Origin: an uncultured archaeon
GTDB taxonomy: Archaea; Thermoproteota; Nitrososphaeria; Nitrososphaerales; Gagatemarchaeaceae
Direction of reading: 5' to 3'
Length of the DNA stretch: 64,000 nucleotides
Assembly (NCBI GenBank): GCA_963817525.1
Contig: CAWFOU010000007.1
Location: 1-64,000 of the forward strand
Positions 1,264 through 50,978 of the stretch are shown piece after piece (positions within the stretch are counted from its first letter, which is position 1; every line of letters starts with the position of its first letter). The translations under genes were made by a program, and so were the position numbers. The notes under the pieces are model-generated. The model saw nothing but the letters and a program-made list of their open reading frames with translations, had not been told where the DNA came from and searched no databases.

Positions 1264-1285
1264 GTAAGGATGCAGTGGTAATATC

Positions 1286-5053: not shown

Positions 5054-5746
5054 CTAGATTGAAGCTGGTGTTCCCGGACTCGCCGAACCGGGACGCCTCA
5101 TGTCCCTCATGAGCAGGACGAGCAGAACGATGGCGATCAGAGACGGGACTCCGACCGCCGCGTAGAAAAGCGACGTTGGGAAGGTCCCGCTCTGGCTTGT
5201 GGTCTGCTGGGTTGAGATCGTCGAAGTCGTGCTAGTGACTTGGGCGACCGGAGGACCCAGCATGAAGATCTGCGCCGTCCCTGTCAGGATGGTGGGGATG
5301 GAAGCTGAGGCGTTTGCAATGTGAAAGTCGATGGTAACGCTCGCGGTGAAGTTGTTCTGACTAAAATCACTGGGGATTTGGAGGGTTATGTTCGAGAGCA
5401 ATGCCTGTCCTGGGGCGAGCTCGACTGGGAGGCCGCTCACAGAGGCGTTCTGAAACGGGGCGCGCAGTGTCTCGCTGACGAGGGTCACGTTCCCGAGGGG
5501 AGGCGAGTCGGAGTTCAAGAAAAAGACCGTTACCTGCTCGTTCCCGCCGGGATAGTTGGCCTGCGCTGGTGCGTTCACGGTAGCCCAGACAGGCGCGGCA
5601 GGGACGGCATAGGGAGGGGGTAGACAATGCACAGATGGCGGGGGGCAGCCCCCTTGGGCTGGAAGCGGGATGGCCTGGCTTGGGGGCACGGCGAGGAGGC
5701 AGGAAAGGACAAGGAGGGTGAGTACGCCCACCTTGAGCCCCGGCAT
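5054..5746 (-). CDS. Paralog of 4116-4778; secreted, TM-anchored protein
   Basis: Shares WATxNA..NYxGGNE..TVF..NSDSPPLGN..ETLxAP..GLPV..GQA; signal peptide and C-terminal TM; TTTATTA upstream. Confidence 0.8.
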   Translation of the reverse strand: MPGLKVGVLTLLVLSCLLAVPPSQAIPLPAQGGCPPPSVHCLPPPYAVPAAPVWATVNAPAQANYPGGNEQVTVFFLNSDSPPLGNVTLVSETLRAPFQNASVSGLPVELAPGQALLSNITLQIPSDFSQNNFTASVTIDFHIANASASIPTILTGTAQIFMLGPPVAQVTSTTSTISTQQTTSQSGTFPTSLFYAAVGVPSLIAIVLLVLLMRDMRRPGSASPGTPASI

Positions 5747-6056
5747 GGAAGGAGAAAGAATCACCTGGCTCTAATAAACAATAGCTTGGACAGCCTAAAG
5801 CGCAATCGAGTCGCTCTGCTCGAAGCACCTCAGCTGCCGGAACTGGCTAGTGATCGCCGAATTGGGAAGAGGAGCTGGAACGCAGAAGGGGCGCCCCCTC
5901 ACTGCGCGAAGCGGGCACGGGAGGACGGCCCCGGCCGAGGGGCGGCTCGAACCAAAGAGCAAGACGACGGGAGGGCGCATCCAGTCTTCCGGATGCCTTT
6001 TTCATATAGCGCCAGTTTCAAGAGGGAGACCCAAACGCTCGAGTACTACCCCTGAC

Positions 6057-6120
6057 CGCCCGGGCCCAGGGGGCGCCAAAGGAGGCGTGACGACGAAGGC
6101 GGGCGTCCCAGGGCCGGGCG
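6057..6120. ncRNA. Candidate structured RNA hairpin, class B copy 1
   Basis: CGCCCGG..GGGGCGCC-loop-GGCGTCCC..CCGGGCG; loop contains TGACGACGAAGGCG; homologous to 39049-39118. Confidence 0.45.
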
Positions 6121-6140
6121 AGACCTTTGTGCTGAACGGG

Positions 6141-6173
6141 AAGAAAATTGGGATGCCCCCTTTGTAAGGGGGC
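6141..6173 (-). terminator. GC hairpin plus U-tract downstream of paralog 3
   Basis: GCCCCCTT-TGT-AAGGGGGC stem, then TTTTCTT on the minus strand. Confidence 0.6.
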
Positions 6174-6195
6174 GCTGGCTGGTTGTCTCCTAAAA

Positions 6196-8742: not shown

Positions 8743-8880
8743 ACGCCGACAATACCGTAATGTCAGTATTTACGCGTTCTTTCAGGTGTATTTTTAACAC
8801 GGTGGCGTTAGCAGATGACGAATCCGCTTACGTCCGCGGAGCTTCCCATCGACCTTGAGGAGATGATCCGCTACGGATCG

Positions 8881-9010
8881 CAGTTACAAATTATCAGAAG
8901 CCCCGCATCTCACATTTGTCAGCATGATCGTTCCACGAGAGGAACCTGCCGACCCCGAGCCCGGACGTGGTCTTAGGGCCATGACCTCTGGCAGGTCAGG
9001 CAAAAAATAG
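8881..9010. repeat. Conserved intergenic element class A, copy 2 (holds an intact 28-codon + strand ORF, 8924-9010)
   Basis: ACAAATTATCA..ATTTGTCAGCATG; ACCTGCC/GGCAGGT inverted repeat; ORF MIVPREEPADPEPGRGLRAMTSGRSGKK. Confidence 0.85.
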
Positions 9011-9030
9011 GAGATGCCCCGTTCAGGGGC
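9002..9030 (-). terminator. GC hairpin plus U-tract downstream of paralog 4
   Basis: GCCCC-GTTCA-GGGGC stem, then TTTTTT on the minus strand. Confidence 0.6.
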
Positions 9031-9046
9031 CCGGTTGGTTGTGCCT

Positions 9047-11473
9047 CTAGGAGGCGGGCTTCCTGCCGCGCATAGCAAGATAGCCCGAGACGATGATGAA
9101 GATCACGGCGACTGCCGCGACTCCATAGAGCGCTGTTGAGTTGGACGATGATGTGACCGTTGTCGTGGAGACTGAGATGGAGACCGAGAGGGCCGCCGTG
9201 GAGGTCGTAGTGACAGTCGTCGTTACGCCGGTCGACGCAACTCCGCTCTGCAGTGAAAGTGCGAGGACGTCACCAGGCGTGGTGCCCGGACACGTTGTGA
9301 CGGCCTCTAGGTCGCACGTCCCTACCGACAATAGGATGTATTCCTGGCCCCCGACGGACGCGCCGAACGAGACGCCCTCGTCCATTGGTGCGCCGATGTA
9401 GTAGTCGCGGAGGAGGTCGCCATTGGTCGCGTTGAGCATCAGCATGTCGCCCGATGACTCCGTCAGGTAGACGACGCCGCCACTCGCGACGGTCTTGCCT
9501 CGGTATCCCTCGCTTGGTTGGGTGTAGTGCCACACTATCTGGCCCGTGGCGCCGTTGATGTCCCATGTCGTGGAATTGTCGTCGATGAACCCACAGGTGG
9601 GGCATGGCGCTATTCCGAGGCCAGCAGACGAGAAGTAGTTGGACGAGTTCAGAAGTACCTGGGCTTCGTAGTATGGAACGATGTGTGTCGTTGCGTAGAT
9701 CTGGTTGTTCGCTGGGTCGTATGACTGCTCGCCCTCGAAGCCGGCTATTGCAGACGGCCACCCTAGGTACGGAGGATTCGTGCCTAGTATGCAGGCACTC
9801 GTGAAGGTTGGCGCGCAGTTGGTCATGGCGGTTGGCCAGTCGAAGCTCATCTGAGTCGCGTTGAGAGGGTTCCACATGTAGCAGACGGGGCACCTGGCTG
9901 CGCCTGGTGTCACGACCTGGCTAGGCGGGCTCCAGGCCCAGATTAGGTTCCCTGTCACGGCGTTGATCTCGTAGAGGTAGCCGTTCTTGCAGGTCTTGAG
10001 GATCACCTCGGTGTTGACGCCGCTGATGGTCTCGTTGGCTAGTGCCTGGTACCACGAGCAGTCCCAGTCCCAGAGGTCGTGCGCGTTCGCCTGGAAGGCC
10101 CACACCACCTGGCCTGTGGTCAGGTTGAGTGCGAGAGTAGCGGCGGACCAGAGGTCTGGTCCTGGGGTGCACGAGCTAGCGTAAGGATCCTTGTTGTTGG
10201 TGCCCACGAAGGCCAGGCCTGCAGTCTGACCCGAGCCGACCACCCAGGCGCCGCCCCACCCGGAGCCCGTGCTCCCTGTGGAGCCGCCCCCGTCGGTGGC
10301 GAGGCACTGTGCGCTCTGATCGGACTGTCCCCAATCGTTGTACAGCGTTGCGTTGAGCTGTGTCGGTGACAGGCTCTTCCAGTTAACGACGATGTCGTTG
10401 TTGTTGTTGACAAGCAGGCCTCCTGCCACCTCTGTCGGGGTGGTGTACCCGTTAGCAGAGCCGTTCTCACCAGGATAGAAGGTCGATGCCGCGGTCATGT
10501 TGGCGATCAACTGCTGGTCGAAGTAGGGGTTCAGCGCCGCCGTTGGGCTACCAGGCTCTGGAGGAACGTCGTAGGTGATCCACTTCATGGTGACCGGGTT
10601 GGTGTTCAGGTTCCATCCTGCGAAGAAGCCCCTGCCGTTGTCGGCGTCTCCCTCTGCGTCATGGCCCGAGACCAGTACTCCCAGGGTCGGGTTGATGACG
10701 ATGTTGGCCGCGCCAATTCCGTTGTAGATGCTCTGCGGGTTGTTGCCTGCCACCATGTTGAGTCCGGTGAAGTCGGAGAAGTTAAGCTCCTGCTTGCCGG
10801 TGACGGCGTTGACGGCGTAGACCCTGTTGTTCTGCCCCTGGAACCAGAAGGTCGGACCCACGACGCCCGAGAGGAACGTCGCGGTCGTGAACCATACGTT
10901 TCCGTCGTGGGAGTGGAGCGGGACTGGGCCTGTGGCCTCACCTGCCGTCTGGTTGGGGGCGAGCGGGGACATGTATGTCCAGAGGATGTCACCGTTGGCC
11001 ACATTAAAGGCGATGATCTCGTCGTACTCTGTGATAGCGAAGGCAGTGCCGTTGACGACGATTATCGACGTTTGTACGCCCGCGCCCGCGCCATAAAGGC
11101 CGCTAAGAGTGCTGAGCGATGACGGCGTACTCGGCAACGGATAGATCCAGCTCAAGCCCAGATACTGGACGTCGGAGCTGTTGATCTGGCTTTGCGGGTT
11201 GTAGTCCTGGTTGAAGGCGTTGCCGTTCGGGAACTCCCAGTTGGCCTCCGCCTGCGTCAGCGCCGGCGCCGCTGCGGCGGGAGCCGCAGCTACGGCCGAG
11301 GGCGCCGCCGTGTTGGGCGTGGCTGCTGCGGGGTTGACGAGGACAGAAGCACCTATCCCCGAGACGATGAAGAGCAGGCTTAGCGCGATTGCTCGGATCG
11401 ATGTGTTGCTTAATGCTTTCTTAATGCTTTTCCCAAATCCGTTCGTAAGACTATAACGTAAAACCTTCGTCAT
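9047..11473 (-). CDS. PQQ-dehydrogenase-like beta-propeller surface protein, paralog 4
   Basis: 808 aa; HDLWDWD and KNGY motifs; same signal peptide and anchor. Confidence 0.88.
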   Translation of the reverse strand: MTKVLRYSLTNGFGKSIKKALSNTSIRAIALSLLFIVSGIGASVLVNPAAATPNTAAPSAVAAAPAAAAPALTQAEANWEFPNGNAFNQDYNPQSQINSSDVQYLGLSWIYPLPSTPSSLSTLSGLYGAGAGVQTSIIVVNGTAFAITEYDEIIAFNVANGDILWTYMSPLAPNQTAGEATGPVPLHSHDGNVWFTTATFLSGVVGPTFWFQGQNNRVYAVNAVTGKQELNFSDFTGLNMVAGNNPQSIYNGIGAANIVINPTLGVLVSGHDAEGDADNGRGFFAGWNLNTNPVTMKWITYDVPPEPGSPTAALNPYFDQQLIANMTAASTFYPGENGSANGYTTPTEVAGGLLVNNNNDIVVNWKSLSPTQLNATLYNDWGQSDQSAQCLATDGGGSTGSTGSGWGGAWVVGSGQTAGLAFVGTNNKDPYASSCTPGPDLWSAATLALNLTTGQVVWAFQANAHDLWDWDCSWYQALANETISGVNTEVILKTCKNGYLYEINAVTGNLIWAWSPPSQVVTPGAARCPVCYMWNPLNATQMSFDWPTAMTNCAPTFTSACILGTNPPYLGWPSAIAGFEGEQSYDPANNQIYATTHIVPYYEAQVLLNSSNYFSSAGLGIAPCPTCGFIDDNSTTWDINGATGQIVWHYTQPSEGYRGKTVASGGVVYLTESSGDMLMLNATNGDLLRDYYIGAPMDEGVSFGASVGGQEYILLSVGTCDLEAVTTCPGTTPGDVLALSLQSGVASTGVTTTVTTTSTAALSVSISVSTTTVTSSSNSTALYGVAAVAVIFIIVSGYLAMRGRKPAS

Positions 11474-11564
11474 GCGCCGATATGATAGCCATCTCTCTAT
11501 TTATGCATTCGGAGCTTGTTAGAGGATGCACTCTGGGGCCACAATTCAACTTGGTTCTTGACGG

Positions 11565-11690
11565 CAGTCACAAATTATCAAAACGCCGCATATTCCGTTT
11601 GTCAGCATGGACGGTCCACGCCAGGGACCTGCCGACCCGGAGTCTGGATAGGTCGGAGGGTCAAGACCTCCGGTAGGTCAGGCAAAAAAT
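11565..11690. repeat. Conserved intergenic element class A, copy 3
   Basis: GTCACAAATTATCAAAACGCCGCAT..TTTGTCAGCATG..GACCTGCCG/CGGTAGGTC..CAAAAAAT. Confidence 0.85.
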
Positions 11691-11714
11691 GGGAGATGCC
11701 CCCGGTCAGGGGGC
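11684..11714 (-). terminator. GC hairpin plus U-tract downstream of paralog 5
   Basis: GCCCCC-GGTCA-GGGGGC stem, then TTTTTT on the minus strand. Confidence 0.6.
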
Positions 11715-11737
11715 CTGGTTTGTTGTGTCTCCTAAAA

Positions 11738-14270
11738 TTAGGAGGCGGGCTTCCTGCCACGCATGGCAAGATAGCCCGTAGCTAGGATGAAGATCACGGC
11801 GACAACAGCTACTGCATACAGTGCTGTGTTGCTGCTCGATGTTGTGGATGTGGACGTGACCGTGGTAATTGACCCGGTCTGGGTGACTGTGGTGGTCTGC
11901 CCGTTGGCTCCGGTCGTTACCGTGACGGTAGCGCCTGAGGCTGTGGCAGTTGTCGTGGATGTGGCAGTTGTCGTGGATGTGGCAGTTGTCGTGGATGTTG
12001 CTGTCACTGTGGCGGTGCTCGTGCTAGAAGGCGGGAGGTTCTCCAGCGTCAGGGCCACGATGTCTCCCGGCGTTGTGCCTGGACACGTCGCAACGGCCTC
12101 GATGCTGCACGTCCCCACGGGTGTGAGGAGGTACTCCTGCCCGCCGACCGATGCCCCGATGGATACGCCCACGTCCATTGGCGCGCCGATGTAGTAGTCT
12201 CTGATGAGTGCACCTGTCTGGGCGTTCACCATGGTGATGTCGCCCGAGGAGAGCACGTTGTAGACGACGTTACCGCTTTCGTCGGTCTGGCCGCGGTATC
12301 CCTGGAGGGATGCCACCGGGTAGTGCCAGTTGACGGCTCCGGTCTGTGCGTTGATTGACCAGAGCGTGGCGTTGTTGATGATGGTGCCGCAAGTGGGGCA
12401 TGCTGTGGTCGCTTCCCCTGTTGAGGAGAAGTAGGTGGACGCGTTGAGCCCAAAGTAGCCCATGTAGTAGGGCACGAGGTGCGATGTGGCGTAGATTGTG
12501 CCTGTGGTTGGGTTGAATGCCTGCTCGTCCTCGAAGCCGGCCAGTTCAGATGGCCACTGGAGGAACGGAGGCTGTGGGCCTCTTAGGCACGCGATGGTGT
12601 ATGCTGGTGCGCAGTTAGTGAGCGCGGATGGGAAGTCGATGCCGGTCTGGGATGCGTTCATCGGGTTCATGGGGAAGCAGACCGGGCACCTGGTCGATCC
12701 GGGTGCCTCTGAGCCTGCAGGTGGATCCCACGCCCAGATCAAGTTGCCTGTGAGGGCGTTGATCTCGAAGAGGTATCCGTCCTTGCACGTCTTCAGGATG
12801 ACTGGAGTGTTCGCGCCCGAGATGGTCACGTTGGCCAGTGCCTGGTACCACGAGCAGTCGTAGTCCCAGACGTCGTGAGCCGTTGTCTGGAATGCCCATA
12901 CCCACGCGCCCGTCGTTACGTTCAGGGCGATCACTGAGGCTGACCAGAGATTAGGTCCTGGGTTGCAAGGCCCGGTGAACGGGTCCTTGTTGTTGGTGCC
13001 GAGGAAGACCATGCCCTGGGTGTTCCCGGAGCCCATTACCCAAGCCCCGCCCCATGCGGAGCCTGTGGAGCCCGTAGAGCCGCCGCCGTCGATGGCGAGG
13101 CACTGCGAGGTCTGGTCGGACTGTCCCCAGTCGTTGTAGAGTGTGGTGTTGAGCTGAGTCGGAGACAGCGCCTTCCAGTTGACCACTAAGTCGTTGTTGT
13201 TGTTGACGAGTAGTCCTCCTGCCACCTCTGCGGGGGTGGTGTACCCGTTGGTAGAGCCGTCCTCACCAGGGTAGAAGGTCGTGGCGCTCTGAGAGATGTT
13301 GGCGATTAGCTGCTGGTCGAAGTATGGGTTCAGCGACGCCGTTGGGCTCCCTGGTTGGGGAGGAACGTCGTAGGTGATCCACTTCATGGGTGACCGGGTT
13401 GGTGTTCAGGTTCCATCCTGCGAAGAAGCCTCTTCCGTTGTCGGCGTCAATTTCAGCGTCGTGGCCAGACACCAGGATGCCCAGTGTCGGGTTGATGACG
13501 ATGTTCGAGGCGCCGATACCGTTGTAGATGCTCTGCGGGTTGTTGCCTGCCACCATGTTGAGGCCGGTGAAGTCGGAGAAGTTGAGTTCGTACTTGCCGG
13601 TCAGCGCGTTGAGCGCGTAGACACGGTTGTTCTCACCCTGGTACCACAGCGTCGGGCCAGAGACTCCGGCGCCGAAAGTCGCTGTAGTGAACCACTCGTT
13701 GCCGTCGTGGTGGTGCAGCGGGACTGGGCCTGTGGATTGTCCTGCGGTCTGGTTGACCGCCAGTGGCGTGAGGGAAGTCCAGAGCACGTCGCCATTGGCG
13801 ACGTTGAAGGCGATGGTCTCGTCGAACTGCGTGATCACGAATGCCGTGCCATTGACGATGATGATGCTCATGTCTGTTGACCCGCCGAACGTCTCGCCGC
13901 CCGGAGCGAGCGCCGATAGCGACGTCGGGACGGTGGGCATCGGATAGATCCACGCCAGTCCGAGATACTGGACGTTGGAGCTGTTGATCTGGGTCTGCGG
14001 GTTGTAGTCCTGGTCGAAGGCGTTGCCGTTCGGGAACTCCCAGTTTGCCTGCGCCTGAGTCAGCGCTGGCGCTGCCGCGACCGGTGCCGCGGCCGAGGGC
14101 GCTGCTGTGTTCGGCGTGGCTGCTGCTGGGTTGATGAGGACGGATGCGCCGATGCCTGAGACGATGAATAGAAGGCTGAGTGCGATTGCGCGGATTGATG
14201 TGTTGCTTAATGTTTTCTTAATACTTTTCCTAAATGCTTTCGTTATATCCTTCGTTAATTCCTTCGTCAT
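11738..14270 (-). CDS. PQQ-dehydrogenase-like surface protein, paralog 5 (one-base insertion near 13389, probably a sequencing error)
   Basis: ORFs 13263-14279 and 11738-13387 join into a full paralog if one G is removed from CATGGGTGA; paralogs 3 and 4 have CATGGTGA. Confidence 0.85.
11942..11999. repeat. 18-bp tandem repeat encoding the TTTATS linker
   Basis: TGTGGCAGTTGTCGTGGA three times inside the S/T linker of paralog 5. Confidence 0.85.
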
Positions 14271-14433
14271 CAGCCGCAATTCGGCTAAGATGCGCTATTT
14301 AGATATTACATATTCGCATAATTTCGTCTTTCGCGAAAGTGTTTGGAGGAGCTGCCAAGCCTTGGGAAAAATGGGAGGAGGACGGGAGTTGCTCGAATCT
14401 GCGGACATCGCGACGTACGAAAAGTCTGGCAGA

Positions 14434-36389: not shown

Positions 36390-36842
36390 ACGCCCGACAC
36401 AATCGAGCGGCGCCCGTGGGGGTCCTTCTCGGTCTATCTTCAGGGAAAGGTTCCCACCCCGTCCTGGGAGGCGAGCTTCCTCGGGGAGCTCCGGTCGACC
36501 TACCACCCTGAGGGCGAGCTCCTGGCGCACGAGCCCGGCGAGGCGCTCACCGTGAAGATCATCCACGTCTACGCAAAGTCGCGGCTCAGCCTTCAATACC
36601 ACCGCCATCGCACCGAGGAGTGGTATTGTCTCTCCGGCCGCGCATACGCGATCTTCAAGCGCGGCGGCAAGCTCGAAGAGGTGCCCCTCGAGAAGGACTC
36701 GCACGTCGTCGTCCCTAGGTTGATGGTCCATCGCCTCGGCTGCAAGGAAGAGAGCGCGGAGATCCTCGAAGTCTCGAAGGGGGACTTCGACGAGGCCGAC
36801 ATCGTGAGGCTCGAGGACGACTACAGGGTAGTCTCAGGCTGA
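36390..36842 (+). CDS. Cupin protein (mannose-6-phosphate isomerase C-terminal type); start uncertain
   Basis: In-frame ERRPWGSF upstream of VKII.V....LSLQYH.HR.E.W...HRL...EVS.G.FDE.DIVRLEDDY. Confidence 0.8.
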   Translation, partial: TPDTIERRPWGSFSVYLQGKVPTPSWEASFLGELRSTYHPEGELLAHEPGEALTVKIIHVYAKSRLSLQYHRHRTEEWYCLSGRAYAIFKRGGKLEEVPLEKDSHVVVPRLMVHRLGCKEESAEILEVSKGDFDEADIVRLEDDYRVVSG

Positions 36843-37090: not shown

Positions 37091-37301
37091 CTCAAACGCA
37101 AAAGTATTGAAGACGGGAAACCCGGTCTCTCGCCGAATCGCAGCCGAACGCCTTCCGTGAGGCCGGACAGGAAGGAGCTGGTCTTGGGCGGGCGAGGGAT
37201 GTCTTTTGCCTGTGACGGGCAGGATTTGACTTGCTCGCCCTGCTCGGCCACGACTCGACGGCTGGGCGTTCCGCTACTGAGCTTGTCCCTGCAGGAAAAG
37301 A

Positions 37302-38599: not shown

Positions 38600-38755
38600 T
38601 CAGACACGCTTGGCGCGCGACCTCTTGGTCCTGCGTGCGGCAATCCATGCATCCACTATTCCGTTTAGCCACGCATTAATTTCTGGTTCAGGCTGTGCGA
38701 GCTTGGCTCTGAGGTATGACAAGTCCTCCATGTGCTCCTCCTCTGAACGCTTCAT
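38600..38755 (-). CDS. Small hypothetical protein (51 aa)
   Basis: MKRSEEEHMEDLSYLRAKLAQPEPEINAWLNGIVDAWIAARRTKRSRAKRV; TTATAT about 25 nt upstream. Confidence 0.5.
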   Translation of the reverse strand: MKRSEEEHMEDLSYLRAKLAQPEPEINAWLNGIVDAWIAARRTKRSRAKRV

Positions 38756-38843
38756 CTTATGTAAAAAGGAGGAGGGGAAATATAAGCGCACATCCCGTGC
38801 GACAGAAACAGAGAAGCTTCCGGCCTTGGGAGGCCAGACCCGT

Positions 38844-38905
38844 CTAGGTCCCTGTGATCGGCTGGATGTGGACTTCCTCGCCGTGCTCGCCCACAGCGCA
38901 TCCGC
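38844..38905 (-). repeat. Displaced copy of the tes 3' end (att-like)
   Basis: Encodes GCAVGEHGEEVHIQPITGT-stop, versus GCAVGEQGEEVHIQPITGT-stop in tes. Confidence 0.92.
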
Positions 38906-39048
38906 CTCTCCGATCATTGTCGGGTACGGCAGAGAGAAGCTTGGTTCGGCTGTCGCCTCATGGAGCTTATCGCCGAGTATTGGCACGCCCTTCCTAGCTC
39001 ACGGAGCGTTTCGACTTTTCGACAAGAGATTAATAGAGCACTCCGTGT

Positions 39049-39118
39049 TGGCTGCCCGGGCCTCGGGGTCACCCGACGATTTGATGACGAAGGCGGGGTG
39101 CCCCGGCCCGGGCGGCCA
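39049..39118. ncRNA. Candidate structured RNA hairpin, class B copy 2
   Basis: TGGCTGCCCGGGCC/GGCCCGGGCGGCCA outer stem, GGGG.CACCC/GGGTGCCCC inner stem, loop TTGATGACGAAGGC. Confidence 0.5.
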
Positions 39119-39130
39119 TTTTTGAAAAGC

Positions 39131-39160
39131 GAAAAAGGGGAGATGCCCCCGGTGGGGGGC
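39131..39160 (-). terminator. GC hairpin plus U-tract downstream of paralog 6
   Basis: GCCCCC-GGTG-GGGGGC stem, then CTTTTTC on the minus strand. Confidence 0.6.
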
Positions 39161-39177
39161 CTGTTTTGGTTGTGCCT

Positions 39178-41706
39178 CTAGGAGGCGGGCTTCCTGCCAC
39201 GCATGGCAAGATAGCCCGTAGCGATGATGAAGATCACGGCGACTATGGCTACTGCGTATAGCGCTGTGTTGCTGCTTGATGATGTGGATGTAGAGGTGAC
39301 CGTGGTAGTTGCACCGCTCATGGTGACCGTGGTTGTCTGCCCGTTGGCTCCGGTCGTTACCGTGACGGTAGCGCCTGAGGCCGTGGAAGTGGTTGTGGAT
39401 ACTGCCGTCGTTGTCGACACTGATGTAGTCGTGGATGTTGCTGTCACCGTGGTGGTGCTAGTGCTCGCGGTGGAAGGCGGGAGGTTCTGCAGGGTCAGGG
39501 CCACGATGTCTCCTGGCGTTGTGCCTGGACATGTCGAGACGGCCTCGAAGCTGCAAGTCCCTACTGGTACGAGGAGGTACTCCTGCCCGCCGACGGACGC
39601 TCCGATCGTCACGCCTTGGTCCATTGGCGCGCCGATGTAGTAGTCTCTGATCAGCGCGCCTGTCGCGGCGTTGACCATAGTGATGTCGCCCGAGGAAAGG
39701 ACGTTGTAGACGACGTTACCGCTGACGTCGGTCTGTCCACGGTATCCCTGCAAGGACCCTACGGGGTAGTGCCAGTTGAGGACCCCGGTCTGTGCGTTGA
39801 TGGACCACAGCGTGGCGTTGTTGTAGAGGACTCCGCAGCTCGGACACGGCACACCTCCTTCGCCTGTCGAGGAGAAGTAGGTGGACGCGTTGAGCCCGAA
39901 GTAGCCCATGTAGCTGGGTACCACGTGCGAAGTCGGGAAGATGGTGTTGCTCCCTGCGTCGAACGCCTGCTCGTCCTCGAAGCCGGCCAGTTCAGATGGC
40001 CACTGGAGGAACGGAGGCTGCGAGCCCCTGTCACAAGCGATGGTGTATGCCGGGTAGCAGTTGGTGAGTGCGGACGGGAAGTCGATGCCGGTCTGGGACG
40101 CGTTCATCGGGTTCATCGGGTAGCAGACTGGACATCTGCTAGGCCCGGAGGTCTCGATGTTAGCGGGCGGATCCCACGCCCAGATCAAGTTGCCTGTGAG
40201 GGCATTGATCTCGAAGAGGTATCCGTCCTTGCACGTCTTCAGGATGACCTCGGTGTTGACGCCCGAGACGGTCTCGTTGGCTAGGGCTTGCCACCAGGAG
40301 CAGTCGTAGTCCCAGACGTCGTGTGTGGTGGTCTGGAAGCCCCAGACTATCTGGCCTGTGGTGATGTTGAGTCCGAGGACTGAAGCTGACCAGAGGTCAG
40401 GTCCTGGGTCGCAAGGCCCAGTGAACGGGTCCTTGTTGTTCGTCCCTAGGAAGACCATTCCCTCTGATTGGCCGGAGCCCACTATCCAGGCGCCGCCCCA
40501 AGCGGAGCCTGTGGAGCCCGTGGAGCCGCCGCCGTCGATGGCGAGGCACTGGGCCGTCTGGTCGGACTGTCCCCAGTCGTTGTAGAGAGTGGTGTTGAGC
40601 TGAGTTGCCGACAGCGCCTTCCAGTTGACGACGATGTCGTCGTTGACGTTCATCAGCGTTCCTCCTGCCACCTCCGTCGGAGTCGTGTACCCGTTGGTAG
40701 AGCCGTTCTCACCAGGGTAGAAGGTCGTCGCGGTGGTCATGTTGGCGATGAGCTGCTGGTCGAAGTACGGGTTGAGAGAAGCGGTCGGGCTGCCCGGCTG
40801 AGGTGGGACGTCGTACGTGATCCACTTCATGGTCACCGGGTTGGTGTTCAGGTTCCACCCTGCGAAGAAGCCTCTTCCGTTGTCGGCGTCGATCTCAGCG
40901 TCGTGGCCAGAGACTAGGATGCCTAGCTGCTGGTTGATGACGATGTTCGAAGCGCCGATCCCGTTGTAGATGCTCTGCGGGTTGTTGCCTGCCACCATGT
41001 TGAGCCCGGTGAAGTCGCTGAAGTTCAGCTCATGGTCACCGTTCAAGGCGTTGATTGCATAGACCCTGTTGTTCTCACCCTGGTACCACAGCGTCGGGCC
41101 GGACACGCCGGAGCCGAACGTCGCTGTGGAGAACCACTCGTTGCCGTCGTGGTCGTGCAGCGGGACCGGGCCTGTTGCCTGACCCGAGGTCTGGTTGACC
41201 GCGAGGGGCGACTGGTCGGTCCAGAGCACGTCGCCGTTGGCGACGTTGAACGCTATGGTCTCGTCGAAGTTTGTGGTGGCGAACGCCGTGCCGTTGACGA
41301 CGATTATCGCCATGCCTATCCCGGGACCGCCGATGCCGCCCGAGAGGGGCGTCAGGGAGGTCGGGACGTTAGGCAGCGGGTAGAGCCAGGCCAGTCCGAG
41401 ATACTGGACGTTGGAGCTGTTGATCTGTGTCTGCGGGTTGTAGTCCTGGTTGAAGGCGTTGCCGTTCGGGAACTCCCAGTTGGCCTCCGCCTGCGTCAGC
41501 GCTGGCTGGGCTGCGACGGGTGCCGCGGCCGAGGGCGCTGCAGTGTTGGGCGTAGCTGCGGCTGGATTGAGGAGCACTGACGCTCCGATTCCTGAGACGA
41601 TGAAAAGAAGACTTAGTGCGATTGCGCGGATTGATGTGTTGCTTAATGTTTTCTTAATACTTTTCGTAAATTCGTTCGTGTTTCGTTTCGATAATACGTT
41701 AGTCAT
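39178..41706 (-). CDS. PQQ-dehydrogenase-like beta-propeller surface protein, paralog 6
   Basis: Same motifs and anchor as the others; nucleotide sequence in register with paralog 1 (positions 1-840 versus 40441-41280). Confidence 0.88.
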   Translation of the reverse strand: MTNVLSKRNTNEFTKSIKKTLSNTSIRAIALSLLFIVSGIGASVLLNPAAATPNTAAPSAAAPVAAQPALTQAEANWEFPNGNAFNQDYNPQTQINSSNVQYLGLAWLYPLPNVPTSLTPLSGGIGGPGIGMAIIVVNGTAFATTNFDETIAFNVANGDVLWTDQSPLAVNQTSGQATGPVPLHDHDGNEWFSTATFGSGVSGPTLWYQGENNRVYAINALNGDHELNFSDFTGLNMVAGNNPQSIYNGIGASNIVINQQLGILVSGHDAEIDADNGRGFFAGWNLNTNPVTMKWITYDVPPQPGSPTASLNPYFDQQLIANMTTATTFYPGENGSTNGYTTPTEVAGGTLMNVNDDIVVNWKALSATQLNTTLYNDWGQSDQTAQCLAIDGGGSTGSTGSAWGGAWIVGSGQSEGMVFLGTNNKDPFTGPCDPGPDLWSASVLGLNITTGQIVWGFQTTTHDVWDYDCSWWQALANETVSGVNTEVILKTCKDGYLFEINALTGNLIWAWDPPANIETSGPSRCPVCYPMNPMNASQTGIDFPSALTNCYPAYTIACDRGSQPPFLQWPSELAGFEDEQAFDAGSNTIFPTSHVVPSYMGYFGLNASTYFSSTGEGGVPCPSCGVLYNNATLWSINAQTGVLNWHYPVGSLQGYRGQTDVSGNVVYNVLSSGDITMVNAATGALIRDYYIGAPMDQGVTIGASVGGQEYLLVPVGTCSFEAVSTCPGTTPGDIVALTLQNLPPSTASTSTTTVTATSTTTSVSTTTAVSTTTSTASGATVTVTTGANGQTTTVTMSGATTTVTSTSTSSSSNTALYAVAIVAVIFIIATGYLAMRGRKPAS

Positions 41707-41958
41707 CCGTAACAAAAAAGTCGAGCAATCGGATATTATGCATTCGCCGCGACATGGTAGCAGATTCCGACACGAGAAGGGGCGGCATTCGTATTCCCCG
41801 ACTGGGATTAGGTGGACAAGCCATCCGTGCTAGCGCATGGCGCGCCAGTAGGCGGGGGCGCCGACACGGGGAGGCTCGCAAGGCTGACTCGAGCCTATAG
41901 CAGGGATACTGACTGCCTCCGTCTTCATTGCAGCGCTGACGAGACCAATGCCAGTTTT

Positions 41959-42900
41959 TCAGTTCGGCCGGCGCGGCGACGGGCCTTGACCTTGCCTGGC
42001 AATGATTTCATCCAGCGCGTTTTCATAAAGGCTAAGGCTATCGTATTTGAAATTCAATTGCAATTCTTTGACTCCACGCAGGCTGCGGGTCCAATCGACA
42101 ATCTCCTTTACGACATGGATGTTGGGGATGATGAACTCGAAATAGCCATGGCTTGCACTTCCCCATCCAGCCCGAAGGATGTAGTCCTCGAATCTTCCGA
42201 ATATTATTCGGTCTACCTCGCGTTTGAACTCATCTGAGGCGTAGGACACAAAGAGAGAGACTGACGATGCACCCTCAAAGCGACTGACATCGATTATTGG
42301 TCGAAAGAAGATGGCCTTGCTCATGGCGAGCTTCTTGAGCCTCCTCTGGACTGTCCTGCTCGAAATCCCAAGCTTGTCGGCCACCTCGGAGTATCGAATC
42401 AACGGATTCGGTCTGAACGCATTGATGACTCGCCAGTCCGTGCGACTCAACTGGACCTCTGGTTGTGGGTAGTTCACCGCATATGTCGTCAACTCTTTCG
42501 TTCCGGCCAACTCTGAGATTAGTTCGATCCTATTTCTGAAGACAAGTTCGTTTTCGCAGATTATTCCAATACCGAGGGTGTCTACGACCTCGAAGGCGAT
42601 TGATGTAACACCTTGGACAAGCATGATCTTGCGGACTGCGTCCTGTGTTCCCAGCTGCGGACTCACCGTTACTCGGGCGCCGTATAATTTGAGCCCCAGG
42701 ACGCCCGGATTAACCACGAGTTGCCACCCTCGAAATATTCCTGCAGATTCCAATCTGTCTACTCGCTTCCTGACGGTGTCTTCGTCCAGAACTAGCGTCT
42801 TCGCGATCCTTCCAAAGACACCTTGCAACACGGGTTGGCTTCCAATGCTGGAAGTCCCACGGGACAGCCCCCCGAGCACCTTGATGTCGATGCGGTCCAA
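41959..42900 (-). CDS. Lrp/AsnC-like regulator with two HTH modules
   Basis: MDRIDIKVL...IAK.L.LDEDTVRKRV..L...G and LS.TDWRVI...YSEVADKLGISSRTVQRRL; visibly lower-GC DNA. Confidence 0.85.
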   Translation of the reverse strand: MDRIDIKVLGGLSRGTSSIGSQPVLQGVFGRIAKTLVLDEDTVRKRVDRLESAGIFRGWQLVVNPGVLGLKLYGARVTVSPQLGTQDAVRKIMLVQGVTSIAFEVVDTLGIGIICENELVFRNRIELISELAGTKELTTYAVNYPQPEVQLSRTDWRVINAFRPNPLIRYSEVADKLGISSRTVQRRLKKLAMSKAIFFRPIIDVSRFEGASSVSLFVSYASDEFKREVDRIIFGRFEDYILRAGWGSASHGYFEFIIPNIHVVKEIVDWTRSLRGVKELQLNFKYDSLSLYENALDEIIARQGQGPSPRRPN

Positions 42901-43251
42901 ACGAGGTTCACTCGTACGCTTGCGGCGGGACGTCGTCCTGAGAAACTCGTGGAAGTTTGAAGTCGAAGGCTAGTTTTCCCGCCTCAGGCAACCGGCGGGA
43001 GTCGGAAAGGATCCTGTAGACGTTGATGGCGCTCGCCGCGCCCATCCACTCTTCGTGGGCAGGGAACGCCATAGGCGAAAGTGGGCGTTCGGATGTATAT
43101 AGCAGTTGTTACAAATTCTCGTCAGATTATTAACCCGTACGGGTCGGAATCCCAATTTTAGCGGTGCAGTCGATTCGCTGTTCACAACTAATACGGCGAC
43201 CGGGCACAAAGATGGCCCAAGAAAGGCCTAGCCCAGGGACGAGCGTTCCGC

Positions 43252-43302
43252 CTAGGCCCCGGTGATCGGCAGGATGTGGACTTCCTCGCCCGGCTCGCCA
43301 AC
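43252..43302 (-). repeat. Second displaced copy of the tes 3' end (att-like)
   Basis: Encodes VGEPGEEVHILPITGA-stop; shares the core GGATGTGGACTTCCTCGCC with 38844 and 43864. Confidence 0.88.
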
Positions 43303-43344
43303 TCGTGGACGCAACGGTCATTTCTCGCGACTAGATTCTATTCC

Positions 43345-43763
43345 TTAGGCTCGCGTTCGAGCAGGCAGTAGAGCGAGCTTCATTGTCAACCCAAGGACAG
43401 TGTCAAGCATTGCGAACTCTTCCCACAAGGTTTCCGGGCTTCTGACAGCGGCGAAAGGTATCCTGCGAATTAGCGAGACCTCGACCTGTTCGAGGGTTGC
43501 CTTGAGGAGACCGATGTCCTCCGGCGATGCCATCCAGAAATCACTTTATCCATCCATTCCTCGGCGAAAGTGGTGTCCTTGAGCTTCTCTTGGAATGCGC
43601 GCCATTCTTCGGGCTTCAGGGGTTCGCGCATCATCTTTGAGTAGTTCTTTGCCCAACGAGAGTTTGGCGAGACCCCTTTCGCTTTGAAGATGCGCGCGTC
43701 CAAGACCCGGTTTGCCCACTCCGTCGACTCCTCTTTCGATGCGTCCGACGACATCCAAGTCAT
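43345..43763 (-). CDS. Hypothetical protein or proteins (overlapping ORFs, possibly one frameshifted gene)
   Basis: ORFs 43470-43763 and 43345-43533 with protein-like composition; TTATAT about 25 nt upstream. Confidence 0.4.
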
Positions 43764-43863
43764 CGAAGAAGTAGGACCGGAGATATAAGCCTAGATACCT
43801 CCGGCCGATTCTCCAGTCGGGTCGCCTGATGCGAATAGGCTATTCGCGCATTGCGAGGGAAGC

Positions 43864-45537
43864 CTAGGTTCCTGTGATAGGCTGGATGTGGACTTCCTCG
43901 CCCTGCTCGCCGACCGCGCAGCCGCAGCCCGCGTGGTGGGTGCCCCTTCTCAGGGTGCCACGGTAGAGCCCGTCCTCGAGCTTCTTCCCGTTCTTCGCTT
44001 CCCAGGCCTCGATCGGCAGCCCGTACTTTTGCTGTATCTTGTCCCTGTACCACTCGGGGATGACGTTGAACGAGCAGAACGGGATGATCCTCAAGTCGGG
44101 GGTGAGGTAGTGGATGTCGCAGCGTTGGAGCCTCTCCTCGTCCTGATTATACTTATCTTGGAAGTGCATCATGCCGATGAACATGCTCTTCGTGTGGAAG
44201 TCCCCGATGGCCGAGTAGTCGTGCCTGATCAACGCGTTGGTGATCATCTTCGCGAAGCTCATGCCCTTGGGCTGCTTCTCCTTGTTGACGAAGCGGGACA
44301 TCTGGGTGAGGACCTTCCCGGCCACCACGTACCTGTTGGTGCCCGAGTAAATCTCCTCCGTCTTCTCCTCGAGGTACTCGATGAGCCCCTGGATGTCGAC
44401 GAAGTTTGTCAGAGGCACGAGCTTCTTTGTCTCGGCGTCCTCGAAGACGTAGGTCCCCGCGCCGCACGCGAAGTGTATCGAGAGCTCGTACTGCTCCTTC
44501 TTGGTGAAGGCCTCGATGAAGCTCGTCAGCGGAGAGCACGACGGGACTGGGAACCAGCCGTCCGACGTGATATCACCGTTGGTCTGCTCCTCGATCCTCT
44601 TGATGCAGTCGGGTATCGTGATCCGGTACTTGTCCCTCTCCTTCTTGGTCATCCTGCCGGTCAGCGAGACTGGTTGGAAGTTGACCGCGTGGACCGTGCC
44701 GAGGTACTTGTGCCCAAAGTCGATGATCGAGCCGAGCTCATGGTCGTTGACAGTCTTGATGACCGTCGGGACGAGCACGACGCCGATATTGTTCTTCCTG
44801 CACGCTTCGAGCGTGTAAGGCGCCTCCCAGTGGTTCTTGGGGTTCGTCTTCGGGCTAGTGCCGTCGAACGACATGTAGAGGTTGGAGACACCTGCCTCGT
44901 GGAGCCGCCCCGCGAGGGACGGGTCTAGTGCAAGGTTGATGCCGTTCGTGTTGAGCTGGACGTGGTCTATGCCCTCCTCGTGCATCATTCTGATGATCTC
45001 GGGGAGCTCCGGACGGATGGTCGGCTCGCCGCCTGTGAGCTGGACCGAGTTCCCTGGGACTGGCCTCTCGGACTTTAGCGTCCTGGCCATCTCCCTCACC
45101 TGGTCCATCGTAGGCTCGTAGACGTACGCGCCCTCGAGGCCCTTCTTGACGTAGAAGAAGCAGTACCAGCACGTCAAGTCGCACCTGTTCGTGATGATGA
45201 TGTTGGACAGGCCCGTGTGAGATAGGTGGTTTGAGCATAGCCCGCAATTGGCGGGGCAGGAGCAGACGTCCATGGGCACGTTGGGCGCATGGGTCCCCTT
45301 CCCGTCCTTCCAGAAGCGGGCGAACTTTGCGTACATCTGGTAGTCGCCGAAGTACAACTCCTCTGTCTCTCCATGCTCTGGGCACGTCTTGGTCATGAAG
45401 ACCTTGTTATCGCGTTCGAAAACTATCGCCGGGAGTATCTTGTTGCAGTCAGGGCAGATGGACTGCGTCTGTCGAATGAATCTTCCCTTCGCACTCTCCT
45501 TCCTGAGGTCTAGGGAGATGTCTACGATCTGAGCCAT
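43864..45537 (-). CDS. tes: Tetraether lipid synthase (radical SAM, MJ0619/GDGT-MAS family)
   Basis: N-terminal SICPDC...KTCPEHG, CPANCGLC..H, radical SAM CDLTCWYC, LTGGEPT, HFACG, MHFQD..N.D.ERL.RC.IHY..PD..IIPFCSFN. Confidence 0.9.
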   Translation of the reverse strand: MAQIVDISLDLRKESAKGRFIRQTQSICPDCNKILPAIVFERDNKVFMTKTCPEHGETEELYFGDYQMYAKFARFWKDGKGTHAPNVPMDVCSCPANCGLCSNHLSHTGLSNIIITNRCDLTCWYCFFYVKKGLEGAYVYEPTMDQVREMARTLKSERPVPGNSVQLTGGEPTIRPELPEIIRMMHEEGIDHVQLNTNGINLALDPSLAGRLHEAGVSNLYMSFDGTSPKTNPKNHWEAPYTLEACRKNNIGVVLVPTVIKTVNDHELGSIIDFGHKYLGTVHAVNFQPVSLTGRMTKKERDKYRITIPDCIKRIEEQTNGDITSDGWFPVPSCSPLTSFIEAFTKKEQYELSIHFACGAGTYVFEDAETKKLVPLTNFVDIQGLIEYLEEKTEEIYSGTNRYVVAGKVLTQMSRFVNKEKQPKGMSFAKMITNALIRHDYSAIGDFHTKSMFIGMMHFQDKYNQDEERLQRCDIHYLTPDLRIIPFCSFNVIPEWYRDKIQQKYGLPIEAWEAKNGKKLEDGLYRGTLRRGTHHAGCGCAVGEQGEEVHIQPITGT

Positions 45538-46701: not shown

Positions 46702-48237
46702 CTATCCGCAGTTGTATTCCGCTGTGAACGTCTGGGCGGAGCTAGTCGCGGTGAAGGACATCGGATCGGCCGTCGCGCCGCCGGACCAGCTGGAGAAGGT
46801 GCAGCTGCCGTAGTTGTCCACTTGCACCTGGTATGACTGCCCTACGGTCGTGGTGAAGGTGTAAGGGGTGAAGCCGTCAGCGATTACCGTCCCGCTAGAG
46901 CTGTAAAGGACCGTGTAGTAGCCGGTGATGGCAGCGCCGTCCTGGTTGACAGAGTTCACCGTGACGCTGGAGCCCGGCGACGTCGTACCTGAGCAGTTGT
47001 AGATCGCGGTGAAGGTCGTCGGTGAGCTTGTAGCTGTGAAAGTCCGGGGGTTGCTGGTCACGCCGTCGGACCACGCACTAAAGACGCAGCTGCCGTAGTT
47101 GTCCACCTGCACACTGTACGCGTCCCCAGACGTCGTGGGGAAGGTAGCTGGAGTATAGCCAGTATCAGCGACGCTTCCGCTGGCGCCGTAGAGGATGGTG
47201 TAGTAGCCGGTGATGGCGGCACCAGCCTGGTTCTGCGAGTTGACAGTGGCGCTGGAGCCCGTACTCGTACTCGTGCTGGATGAGGTGGAAGTCGAGCTCG
47301 TGGTCGTGCTAGTGCTGGACGAGGTGGAACTTGAACTCGTGGACGTACTCGTACTCGTGCTGGTTGAAGTGGAAGTCGAGCTTGTGCTGGTGCTGGTGCT
47401 AGTGCTGGTTGAAGTGGAAGTCGAGCTCGAGGTCGTGGTGGTCGTCCCGCCTCCCCAAGCAACCGAGAAGCTCGTCCCGTCGCTCGAGATCGCAGAGGGC
47501 GTCGCCTCGGTCGAGCCTGAGCCCGAGACCATCGTGATCTCTTGCACGGCAGGCCCGAAGGAGCTGATCGTCCCGGTTACCCCGCTGACCGTGGCGTAAT
47601 CGGTGGAGGCGACGCCGGTGTTGTCTACGCCGTAGAATGCTGTGCCGAAATCAGCCAGCGGCAGAATCCTGGTACTGGAAGAAGGAGCCTCAGCTATCCA
47701 CTCTGCCGAGCTCTCCGCCGCCGAGGCCACCGCCTGGGTGATGCTGTAGGCCTTCCCCGTGGTCACATCGGTGATTGTTGTGGTGAACTCGCCTCCAGAG
47801 TAGGTCACTCCCGCCGACATCTTGTTACCTGGCGAGACTGGGACGCTCGTTATGTCGTAAGAGCCGCTCGGGTAGAACTCGTACCACGCGTAGTAGCTGG
47901 GGGTGCCCCTCAGGCACTGGGCCATCGTCCCCGTCTGCTCCACCGTGTCGGAAGAGTAACCGTCGATCCCCACCCAGAAGGCCGCGTACGAGCTCGTCGA
48001 TGAGCAGGTCACGCTGGGAGCAATCCAGGAGCCCTCCACGTTCGTCACAGAACCCGTGGGGCCTGTGACGGCGTAGCCGCTCCAGTTCTCGCTGCTGCCG
48101 TTGGCGTAGGTAATCCTCGGGTGGGAGGCGGGAGTCACATTCGCCTGGGCGGAGGGAGGTAGAGCGAGGGTGAGAAACGAAGCTGCGAACAATATGAGCA
48201 CGGCGACTGACACGACAGTCGATAACCGCGACTTCAT
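46702..48237 (-). CDS. G1 family glutamic peptidase with two C-terminal repeat domains
   Basis: SENWSGY, WVGIDG, VEQTG, AWYEFYP, SAEWIAEAP, LADFG; S/T linker; duplicated VNS.NQ.GAAITGYYT domain. Confidence 0.92.
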   Translation of the reverse strand: MKSRLSTVVSVAVLILFAASFLTLALPPSAQANVTPASHPRITYANGSSENWSGYAVTGPTGSVTNVEGSWIAPSVTCSSTSSYAAFWVGIDGYSSDTVEQTGTMAQCLRGTPSYYAWYEFYPSGSYDITSVPVSPGNKMSAGVTYSGGEFTTTITDVTTGKAYSITQAVASAAESSAEWIAEAPSSSTRILPLADFGTAFYGVDNTGVASTDYATVSGVTGTISSFGPAVQEITMVSGSGSTEATPSAISSDGTSFSVAWGGGTTTTTSSSTSTSTSTSTSTSTSSTSTSTSTSTSTSTSSSSTSSSTSTTTSSTSTSSSTSTSTGSSATVNSQNQAGAAITGYYTILYGASGSVADTGYTPATFPTTSGDAYSVQVDNYGSCVFSAWSDGVTSNPRTFTATSSPTTFTAIYNCSGTTSPGSSVTVNSVNQDGAAITGYYTVLYSSSGTVIADGFTPYTFTTTVGQSYQVQVDNYGSCTFSSWSGGATADPMSFTATSSAQTFTAEYNCG

Positions 48238-49787: not shown

Positions 49788-50978
49788 CTAGATTACCTGG
49801 AATGTCGCGGAGCCGGTGCCCGAGGTGTAACCAGGGGCCGACGCTGCTGCGATCAAGCTGTAGGTTCCGACCGGCGCGCTCCTGCCGGTCGCGTAGCTGA
49901 AGCTCACGGAGCCACCGTTGCCCGTGGTGCCTCTGCCTGTGGCCTCCCCCCCGTTCGGGATGGTCAGCGTGACAGACACGCTCGCCCTCGAGACCGGCGA
50001 GCCGGTGCTGGTCGTGACCAAGACATTGATCGTCACCGTCGAACCCGGGGAGTAGCTGGCCCGGTTCGTCGTCAGGGTCACCACAAGCTGCGATGGGCTG
50101 GTGGTCGATGTCGAAGTGGAACTCGTTGTGGTGGTGGTCGTAGTTGTGGTGGTCGTTGTAGTCGAACTGGTGCTCGACGTGGTGGTGGTCGAGGTCCCCC
50201 ACGCCACCGAGAAGCTCGTCCCGTCGCTCGAAATCGCGGAGGGGGTTGCCTCCACCGAGCCCGAGCTCGAGATCATCGTGATCTCCTGCACGGCAGACCC
50301 GAAGGAGCTCATGGTCCCCGTGACGCCACTGACCGTCGCGTAGTTCGTGGAAGCGACGCCCGTGTTGTCGTCGCCGTAGTAGGCCGTAGCAAAGTCCGCC
50401 AAGGGCAGAATCGAGTTTCCTGAGGACGGCGCCTCAGCTATCCACTCCGCGGAGCTCTCCTGTGCTGAAGCGACAGCCTGAGAGGTGCTGTAGGTCTTTC
50501 CCGTCGTCACGTCTGTAATCGTAGTGGTGAAAATCCCTCCGGAGTAAGCGACGGCGGCGGACATCACGTTGCCAGGCGCGACTGGGACGCTCGATATCAA
50601 GTAGGAGCCGCTAGGGTAGAACTCATACCAGGCGTAGTAGCTCGCGGTGCCCCCCTGGCATTCGGCCATCGTCCCCGTCTGCTCCACGGTGCTGGAGGAG
50701 TAACCGTCAATCCCCACCCAGAAGGCGGCGTAGGCGCTCCTCGAGGAGCAGGTGACGCTGGGAGCAATCCAGGAGCCCTGCACGTCCGTGACCGAGCCCG
50801 TGGGGCCTGTCACAGCGTAGCCGCTCCAGTTCTCGCTGCTCCCGTTGGAGTTTGTCAACCTCGGGTGGGAGGCGGGGACCTCGTTCCTTTGGGCCGAGGC
50901 GGGGATTGCGAGGGTGAGGAACGAGGCGGCGAGGAGCACCATCAACACGGTAGTCGTCGCTCCAGTTGAAAATCGCAA
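49788..50978 (-). CDS. G1 family glutamic peptidase with a C-terminal Ig-like domain
   Basis: Same G1 motifs; T-rich linker; T.RASYSPG.TV.I.V domain. Confidence 0.92.
   Translation of the reverse strand: MRFSTGATTTVLMVLLAASFLTLAIPASAQRNEVPASHPRLTNSNGSSENWSGYAVTGPTGSVTDVQGSWIAPSVTCSSRSAYAAFWVGIDGYSSSTVEQTGTMAECQGGTASYYAWYEFYPSGSYLISSVPVAPGNVMSAAVAYSGGIFTTTITDVTTGKTYSTSQAVASAQESSAEWIAEAPSSGNSILPLADFATAYYGDDNTGVASTNYATVSGVTGTMSSFGSAVQEITMISSSGSVEATPSAISSDGTSFSVAWGTSTTTTSSTSSTTTTTTTTTTTTTSSTSTSTTSPSQLVVTLTTNRASYSPGSTVTINVLVTTSTGSPVSRASVSVTLTIPNGGEATGRGTTGNGGSVSFSYATGRSAPVGTYSLIAAASAPGYTSGTGSATFQVI

Follow-up and report, generated by a model that had tools for sequence, protein, structure and literature searches.

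Introduction

Prophage 21 and e14 in the icd gene of Escherichia coli supply their essential host gene with an alternative 3′ end that bears mostly synonymous changes, and a pseudo-end is left downstream. That case is driven by an integrase and involves a single element and no array. Here we describe a stretch of 64,000 nucleotides (the window; positions 1 to 64,000 of contig CAWFOU010000007.1 in assembly GCA_963817525.1) from an uncultured archaeon of the Gagatemarchaeaceae, in which the 3′ end of the tetraether lipid synthase gene, tes, is repeated behind the gene. Our analysis supports a role of this gene end as a recurrent insertion hotspot at which incoming DNA brings a replacement tail. 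With confidence that is about even, we infer that the insertions were started by a lineage of homing endonucleases, and that other cargo then rode in on the homology of the tails.

The closest known pattern is an endonuclease open reading frame (ORF) next to the repeated end of a gene, as known from fungal mitochondria. There, the C-terminal parts of cob and atp6 are duplicated, and decayed ORFs of the LAGLIDADG or GIY-YIG kind separate gene and duplicate (PMC6279837). The combination of a conserved gene, an endonuclease ORF and a partial C-terminal duplicate is also found at archaeal loci presented below (contig C10, genome G061 and an EF-1alpha locus). The present case differs in its place on an archaeal chromosome, and in having up to eight tails with kilobases of cargo other than endonuclease genes.

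The 3′ end of a protein gene is not an unusual target in this phylum, since 14 of 68 thaumarchaeal integrated elements lie in 3′-distal parts of protein genes; repeated use of one site in tandem is also described (PMC6563490). These elements share with the tes locus the phylum, the kind of target, a stop codon restored by the element, and the tandem reuse. They differ in carrying integrases or casposases and in having short att sites or target-site duplications; no such enzyme was found here. In the text of that survey, tes is not among the targets listed (the full list is its Table S2), nor does the word 'homing' occur there. The original prediction, which was made from the DNA letters alone, had remarked that no description of tes as an att site was known. 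Searches of the literature found nothing that links tetraether synthase with homing endonucleases, and nothing related to tetraether synthase and integrases among the matches listed, as judged by title and abstract.

The 3′ end of tes recurs in direct orientation behind the intact gene

The window forms the first 64,000 positions of contig C7 in a genome (G000) of 2.82 Mb and 15 contigs, with 95% completeness and 8.75% contamination. Its minus strand carries an intact gene that encodes tetraether lipid synthase (Tes), as shown by an equivalog match above the curated cut-off of 450 bits; the score and the Pfam domains, one of them a zinc ribbon, are given in Table 1. The last 16 to 20 codons of tes are repeated in direct orientation at two places downstream of the gene. 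We refer to the native end as tail A and to the two copies as tails B and C. The window contains a 19-nt core, GGATGTGGACTTCCTCGCC, exactly three times (positions 38864, 43272 and 43884), always on one strand, and none of 100 dinucleotide shuffles held three matches (shuffle mean 0.03). A repeat search found a 72-nt family at the tes tails, with spacings of 4408 and 612 nt.

The translated tails end in GCAVGEQGEEVHIQPITGT (native), VGEPGEEVHILPITGA (copy B) and GCAVGEHGEEVHIQPITGT (copy C), each closed by a TAG stop codon. Similarity to tes extends over 16 codons in copy B and 20 codons in copy C. Copy C differs from the native tail at 7 of 63 bases, with 5 synonymous and 2 non-synonymous changes, and copy B at 7 of 51 bases, with 4 synonymous and 3 non-synonymous changes; the changes thus lean towards synonymous ones, on small counts. 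A fourth, weak and decayed copy (tail D) was detected further downstream by nhmmer, with an E value that rises from that in Table 1, calculated among the loci, to 0.012 genome-wide. The original prediction had claimed three direct copies of the tes end, each with its TAG stop and with mostly synonymous changes in the flanks; all of this was borne out, and tail D is added to it.

Comparison with related genomes identifies tail C as the old gene end. Tail C and about 130 nt beyond it, in which lie a hairpin, an TTATATTT element and the beginning of a 51-aa ORF, align with the native tes end and flank in the species closest to this one, G012 (Tes 98% identical) and G020 (97%). The flank 3′ of tail A, on the other hand, belongs to the orf97 cassette and is not the ancestral tes flank. 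Judging from these alignments, tail C is the ancestral tes end with its original flank, now about 5 kb downstream of the gene, and the insertions took place between tes and this end. Read outward from tes, the window shows tail A as the end of the gene, then the orf97/62 cassette, tail B, a cassette with Lrp and PQQ-propeller genes, tail C, an NHL cassette, tail D and a cupin gene. The three tail copies are very probably relics of successive insertions, each of which replaced the tes end. The earlier proposal of successive insertions that leave the older tail downstream is supported by this alignment of tail C.

Whether the repeats could stem from assembly was judged from short reads and from a redundant contig. 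Tails A, B and C are each bridged by short-read contigs, with 0 to 1 differing letters, from four soil runs of one study, which may include the source sample. In addition, contig C14 of the same assembly is a 99.7% identical second copy of the locus, with tails and structure as in the window. An assembly duplication is therefore unlikely, as the original prediction had also held. No joints that skip a cassette were seen in the contigs of the four runs, in which depth is low and rare forms are not visible, so that this result says nothing on excision.

A predicted homing endonuclease gene lies behind tes in contig C10

Contig C10 is a 91–96% identical variant of the locus with a different structure. 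Its Tes protein is 100% identical to that of the window, and the two genes differ by 63 synonymous and no non-synonymous changes. In C10, the tes TAG is immediately followed by a 1.4-kb insert; copy C comprises 69 codons (residues 489–557), compared with 20 codons in the window; and a different 4-kb segment stands where the window has the NHL gene, from tail C to tail D. C7 and C10 are homologous again from tail D onward (blastn break at 37253), and cassette 2 is also present in C10, at about 91% identity. The shortness of tail C in the window reflects a deletion in a dead copy. The 69-codon fragment of C10 shows synonymous (pS) and non-synonymous (pN) divergence of 0.34 and 0.039 from the native tes end, and this pS is twice that between the whole tes genes of the two haplotypes (0.175). 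By such comparisons the divergence among tails looks like coding divergence. The presence of C14 and C10 as redundant haplotype contigs of the tes locus in one assembly fits its contamination figure, and C10 may come from a second, closely related population.

The C10 insert holds an ORF of 395 aa on the strand opposite to tes, which converges with tes and ends 126 nt from its stop codon. Past this gene lies a tes fragment of codons 487–499, cut at a shared ACAGGA, and then the stretch found behind tail A in the window. The AlphaFold model of the 395-aa protein has a predicted local distance difference test (pLDDT) score of 88, and its best fold matches in PDB are I-DmoI (template-modelling score 0.68–0.69, probability 1.00), PI-SceI, the TliVMA intein endonuclease and PI-PfuI. 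The acidic residues of the motifs (G194-D195 and S307-D308-G309) are invariant in 20 of 20 aligned family members, and the family has an N-terminal helix-turn-helix region. On the basis of motifs and modelled fold, the ORF is predicted to encode a free-standing, double-motif LAGLIDADG homing endonuclease. A sequence profile of the endonuclease family run against PDB gave nothing relevant, and a search of genome contigs for loci related to the endonuclease confirmed no relative. Its 58 database relatives are all unnamed or labelled 'hypothetical protein', and PF14528 is precomputed for 24 of them. Behind tes, the gene shows a presence/absence polymorphism, being found in C10 and missing from C7 and C14, with an identical Tes protein.

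The modelled protein shares with I-DmoI and the archaeal intein endonucleases the double-motif monomeric LAGLIDADG fold and the retained acidic residues. In contrast to these, its gene stands behind the host gene on the opposite strand, and not in an intron or intein. Host function is kept here by the replacement gene end, whereas intron and intein systems keep it by splicing. NCBIfam also holds a model for intein-containing Tes (NF045703), and tes is an intein host in other archaea.

Tail arrays with variable cargo stand behind tes in relatives

The closest tes loci belong to Nitrososphaerota of soils, peat and groundwater, among them 'Candidatus Gagatemarchaeum stordalenia'. Extra tes 3′ fragments are present in many of the 61 family genomes (this one counted). 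A tail profile built from 30 tail copies revealed direct-orientation arrays behind tes, with 8 copies in both G012 and G014, 7 in G018, 5 in C10, 4 in the window and in G020 (one of the latter at E = 0.6), 3 in G009 and in G015, 2 to 4 in G010, 2 in G016, and a single copy in each of G008 and G027. The cupin gene forms the far border in four of the loci with tails (C10, G012, G008 and G018). The tails match tes over 10 to about 130 codons, with fragment starts from codon 425 to codon 535, and the tails resemble the resident tes allele of their clade.

The cargo of the arrays varies by genome and comprises restriction-modification, toxin-antitoxin and secreted proteins. It includes GmrSD, Dam and DpnI, Vsr and a C5-methylase, ThaI restriction-modification, PIN, HicA/HicB and Fic, a nucleotidyltransferase, ABC transporters and SMC-like ATPases, as well as PKD and NHL proteins. 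The orf97/62 cassette of the window is found again in C10, G018, G020 and, partially, G012; its position in the array varies, and its start always lies directly after the TAG of a tail. The variable cargo that the original prediction proposed to look for behind tes is thus seen across related genomes, which range from a single tail, as in G008, to arrays of 2 to 8 tails, and the cassettes differ even in the C10 haplotype.

Two further observations concern tes itself. The gene is split over two or three frames in G009 (contig C2, locus L054) and G010 (contig C4, locus L055), which could be due to frameshifts or to errors of long-read assembly. Solitary tes 3′ fragments lie on contig C7 outside the window, one at C7:76335-76468 near secreted proteins, EarA-like regulators and an IS240-type transposase, and another at C7:403697-403819 near a HEPN/nucleotidyltransferase pair.

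No recombinase was found among the ORFs scanned

The genome has seven PF00589 matches, of which none lies in the window, in agreement with the earlier statement that no integrase is present there; the nearest is at C7:102206, 58 kb from tes. Neither the main ORFs of the window nor the C10-specific ORFs matched a recombinase family, and no such match appeared, at E <= 1e-4, in 120 of the 159 candidate ORFs of 15 related arrays, the other 39 being short or overlapping ORFs that were left out. Recombinases next to the tail copies, for which the original prediction proposed to look, were therefore not seen in these 120 ORFs. Of the integrative element that it envisaged, the insertion hotspot with replacement tails is supported and the integrase-type element is not; the enzyme associated with the tails is predicted to be a LAGLIDADG endonuclease.

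Several candidates were rejected. ORFs of about 400 aa beside tails (L010 9807-11078, L056 2356-3561 and L057 3615-4577) are by sequence secreted proteins with many paralogues and not integrases, and a further candidate integrase, L049 1801-3147, gave no family match. An integron-like cassette array was set aside because no integrase was found and the repeat is the end of a coding gene.

Related endonucleases adjoin the ends of several conserved genes

The endonuclease family is present in 26 of 36 genomes of this archaeal family (this one not counted) and in none of 24 from other families of the order. Its distribution is patchy within the genus. It divides into lineages whose neighbours do not change, and in all of them the gene converges with its host gene's 3′ end. 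The tes-type lineage, convergent with tes, was found in C10, G026, G033 and G030, and also in G061. A gene of this lineage stands behind tes in 6 of 80 tes loci from other species, and in both of the two metagenome contigs retrieved with the endonuclease as query. In at least 9 species its distance from tes is no more than 1 kb; in G016 it is 3.5 kb and in G015 10 kb.

In G061, tes is followed by the endonuclease gene and then by the displaced codons 488–557, giving a 186-nt repeat with 76% identity. The displaced tes fragments start within codons 487–492 in all four cases seen at base level (C10 twice, G061 and G009). The protein motif around codons 480–500, PDLRIIPFCSFNVIPEWYRD, is nearly invariant among the 80 sequences listed, and a highly conserved protein motif is the kind of site that homing endonucleases favour.

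Paralogues of the enzyme stand at other genes. An EF-1alpha-type paralogue adjoins the EF-1alpha 3′ end in 9 genomes, a GluRS-type paralogue adjoins GluRS in 6, and some family members adjoin tRNA genes. At G000:C1:194159-197462 (L013 5160-8463), EF-1alpha is followed by a convergent 452-aa LAGLIDADG paralogue and a 76-nt copy of the last 24 EF-1alpha codons, 87% identical. On contig C90 of G019 (L027 1341-2517), a perfect 42-nt repeat of a tRNA gene's 5′ half flanks a family member; the tRNA gene contains an intron, and its intact copy lies downstream. This duplicate mirrors the tes-tail case. No GluRS tail duplicate was seen beside its endonuclease gene in the present genome. These repeats suggest that the link of the endonuclease with duplicated gene ends is general and extends beyond tes. 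Together these predicted free-standing LAGLIDADG endonucleases make up an archaeal family, as yet unnamed, whose targets fall into at least four classes.

A model for insertion at tes and its alternatives

We propose the following course of events. An incoming segment would join within the last 10 to 130 codons of tes and bring a replacement end with a stop codon; since each insert supplies both, the essential tes would stay whole. The older tes end would be shifted downstream and decay there. The starter would be a free-standing LAGLIDADG endonuclease gene, whose enzyme would break a tes allele free of the endonuclease gene. Repair of the break from a donor unit, made up of a tes 3′ piece and the endonuclease gene, would yield tes, the endonuclease gene and a displaced tes fragment. 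The endonuclease gene would later be lost, either by recombination between the direct tail repeats or by decay, and the remaining tails would offer homology for further cargo cassettes. The window would represent this endonuclease-free state. In its favour speak the C10 haplotype, the finding of the same lineage behind tes in other species, the closely spaced starts of the displaced fragments, the paralogues at other gene ends, the patchy and confined distribution of the family, the coding-like divergence of the tails and the precedent in fungal mitochondria. Consistent with such a donor, the 3′ part of an endonuclease-bearing allele (L145) is about 1.5 to 2 times more diverged than its body, which is not seen between endonuclease-free alleles.

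A number of observations weigh against a start by a homing endonuclease. The window contains no endonuclease gene, its three cassettes are ordinary cargo, and most cassettes in relatives also come without such a gene; moreover, homing endonucleases are not known as carriers of cargo. The C10 protein scores 21.1 bits with Pfam LAGLIDADG_3, under the cut-off of 22.5, and WhiA, a LAGLIDADG regulator that does not cleave, is also among its fold matches. Flanking direct repeats (<=1.5 kb) are found at only 5 of 31 endonuclease loci, namely tes in C10, tes in G061, EF-1alpha in this genome, the tRNA gene in G019 and a further target in G025, and no displaced tes tail was found in G026, G033 or G030.

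Further difficulties concern the cut site. The functional tes of C10 has the DNA of the C7 allele across codons 484–499, and its tail has not diverged further than the gene body. Because the two sequences are identical there, a target at codons 487–492 would not be destroyed in the C10 carrier, and no recoded target was found in carriers across codons 484–499. The cleavage site may instead lie across the stop codon and the native flank, two stretches that the C10 insert parts from each other. Many tails comprise just 10–20 codons, and the fragment starts are spread from codon 425 to codon 535, which a single cut site without later deletions does not account for. Either there are several sites, or deletions are common in dead copies.

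Other origins of the tails were weighed against the same evidence. Duplication of the tes end in place, or an assembly artefact, either without foreign DNA, would give repeats that are direct, local and in one orientation, as these are, and the assembly does contain redundant contigs. This explanation is close to refuted, however, by spacers between tails that are mutually unrelated and hold differing genes, by tails that differ at 7/63 and 7/51 bases, by independent short-read contigs across all three junctions, and by a pS of the long C10 fragment twice as large as that between the haplotypes. A tyrosine recombinase with an attP that copies the tes tail could have acted serially, so that the tails would be attL, a hybrid att and attR, with the integrases lost or supplied in trans. 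Such a process would account for direct repeats that share an identical 19-nt core in all three copies between divergent arms, and for the start of every cassette right after the stop codon of a tail. It has precedents in the 14 of 68 thaumarchaeal elements in 3′-distal parts of protein genes and in the described tandem reuse of a site (PMC6563490), and the genome codes for seven PF00589 proteins; the solitary tes fragments at C7:76335 and on contig 3 of G018 could be attP-bearing elements. We consider it unlikely all the same. Neither the window nor the 58 kb next to tes holds a PF00589 match, and no recombinase family appeared in C10 or in the 120 of 159 array ORFs (E <= 1e-4). A fixed att site would be constant in extent, whereas the tes homology varies between 10 and about 130 codons, and the tails are like the resident tes allele of each clade.

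That variation in homology length agrees with homologous recombination without a dedicated enzyme, in which circles or fragments with a tes 3′ piece would enter the conserved tes end, the tails would add homology, and a variable island would grow. The occurrence of one cassette type at differing array positions, a cargo typical of variable or defence islands, and a motif at codons 480–500 that is nearly invariant among the 80 sequences listed also agree with it. This account is nevertheless doubtful in our judgement, as it leaves unexplained why an endonuclease gene stands at the duplicated ends of tes and EF-1alpha, and at GluRS and tRNA genes, and why the fragments start within six codons in 4/4 cases.

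If the insertions were indeed started by a homing endonuclease, a broader and speculative extension can be drawn, which we regard as rather improbable. The tes end would then be a gene-capture platform without an integrase, in which the endonuclease cuts the end of an essential and highly conserved gene, repair draws in any DNA with a copy of that end, and an integron-like array of defence, toxin-antitoxin and secreted-protein cassettes builds up behind tes, a former gene end bordering each cassette, with sister enzymes acting likewise at EF-1alpha, GluRS and tRNA genes.

A homing start would mean that DNA can enter an essential gene without harm and without an integrase in soil Thaumarchaeota that are not yet culturable. 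The region behind tes stands out as a variable island that gathers defence genes, which is useful for reading these genomes, and this accounts for the tendency of short-read assemblies of these organisms to break there. LAGLIDADG endonucleases, of which the present ones form an unnamed archaeal family with at least four classes of target, are sought as rare-cutting nucleases.

Organization of the locus

Table 1. Positions of tes, its tails and the intervening cassettes in the window
Feature	Position	Strand	Evidence or remark
tes, 557 aa, intact	43864..45537	-	NF045702 690 bits; Pfam Radical_SAM, Zn_ribbon_HMPTM
Tail A, present native tes end, last 20 codons + TAG	43864..43925	-	Repeat and tail profile
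Cassette 1, 0.56 kb	43303..43863	-	ORFs of 97 aa (43470-43763) and 62 aa (43345-43533), no family match
Tail B, displaced tes end, 16 codons + TAG (VGEPGEEVHILPITGA and stop)	43252..43302	-	Repeat and profile
Cassette 2, 4.35 kb	38906..43251	-	Pfam on its genes
Lrp/AsnC-type protein with double helix-turn-helix, in cassette 2	41959-42900	-	Pfam
Secreted 845-aa PQQ-like beta-propeller, in cassette 2	39178-41715	-	Pfam
Tail C, displaced ancestral tes end, 20 codons + TAG	38844..38905	-	Flank alignment with G012 and G020
Ancestral downstream flank of tes: hairpin, TTATATTT element, 51-aa ORF (38600-38755)	38600..38843	-	Alignment with G012 and G020
Cassette 3, secreted NHL-repeat beta-propeller, 410 aa	37302..38534	-	Other 4-kb segment in C10
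Tail D, decayed fourth tes tail	37208..37250	-	nhmmer E = 1.4e-3; repeat family D6
Cupin gene, conserved distal border of the variable region	36552..36842	+	Past the last tail in C10, G012, G008 and G018

The PQQ-like propeller gene of cassette 2 has about 10 paralogues in the genome. Five of these PQQ-like paralogues stand in tandem at 1-14271 of the window, with 72–87% DNA identity to it, and more lie on contigs C1 and C8. The window also holds a tRNA-Arg(TCG) gene at 12498-12592, which at 95 nt is long enough for an intron. Upstream of tes lie two paralogues of a secreted peptidase A4 (46702-48237 and 49788-50978) with long Ser/Thr-rich linkers.

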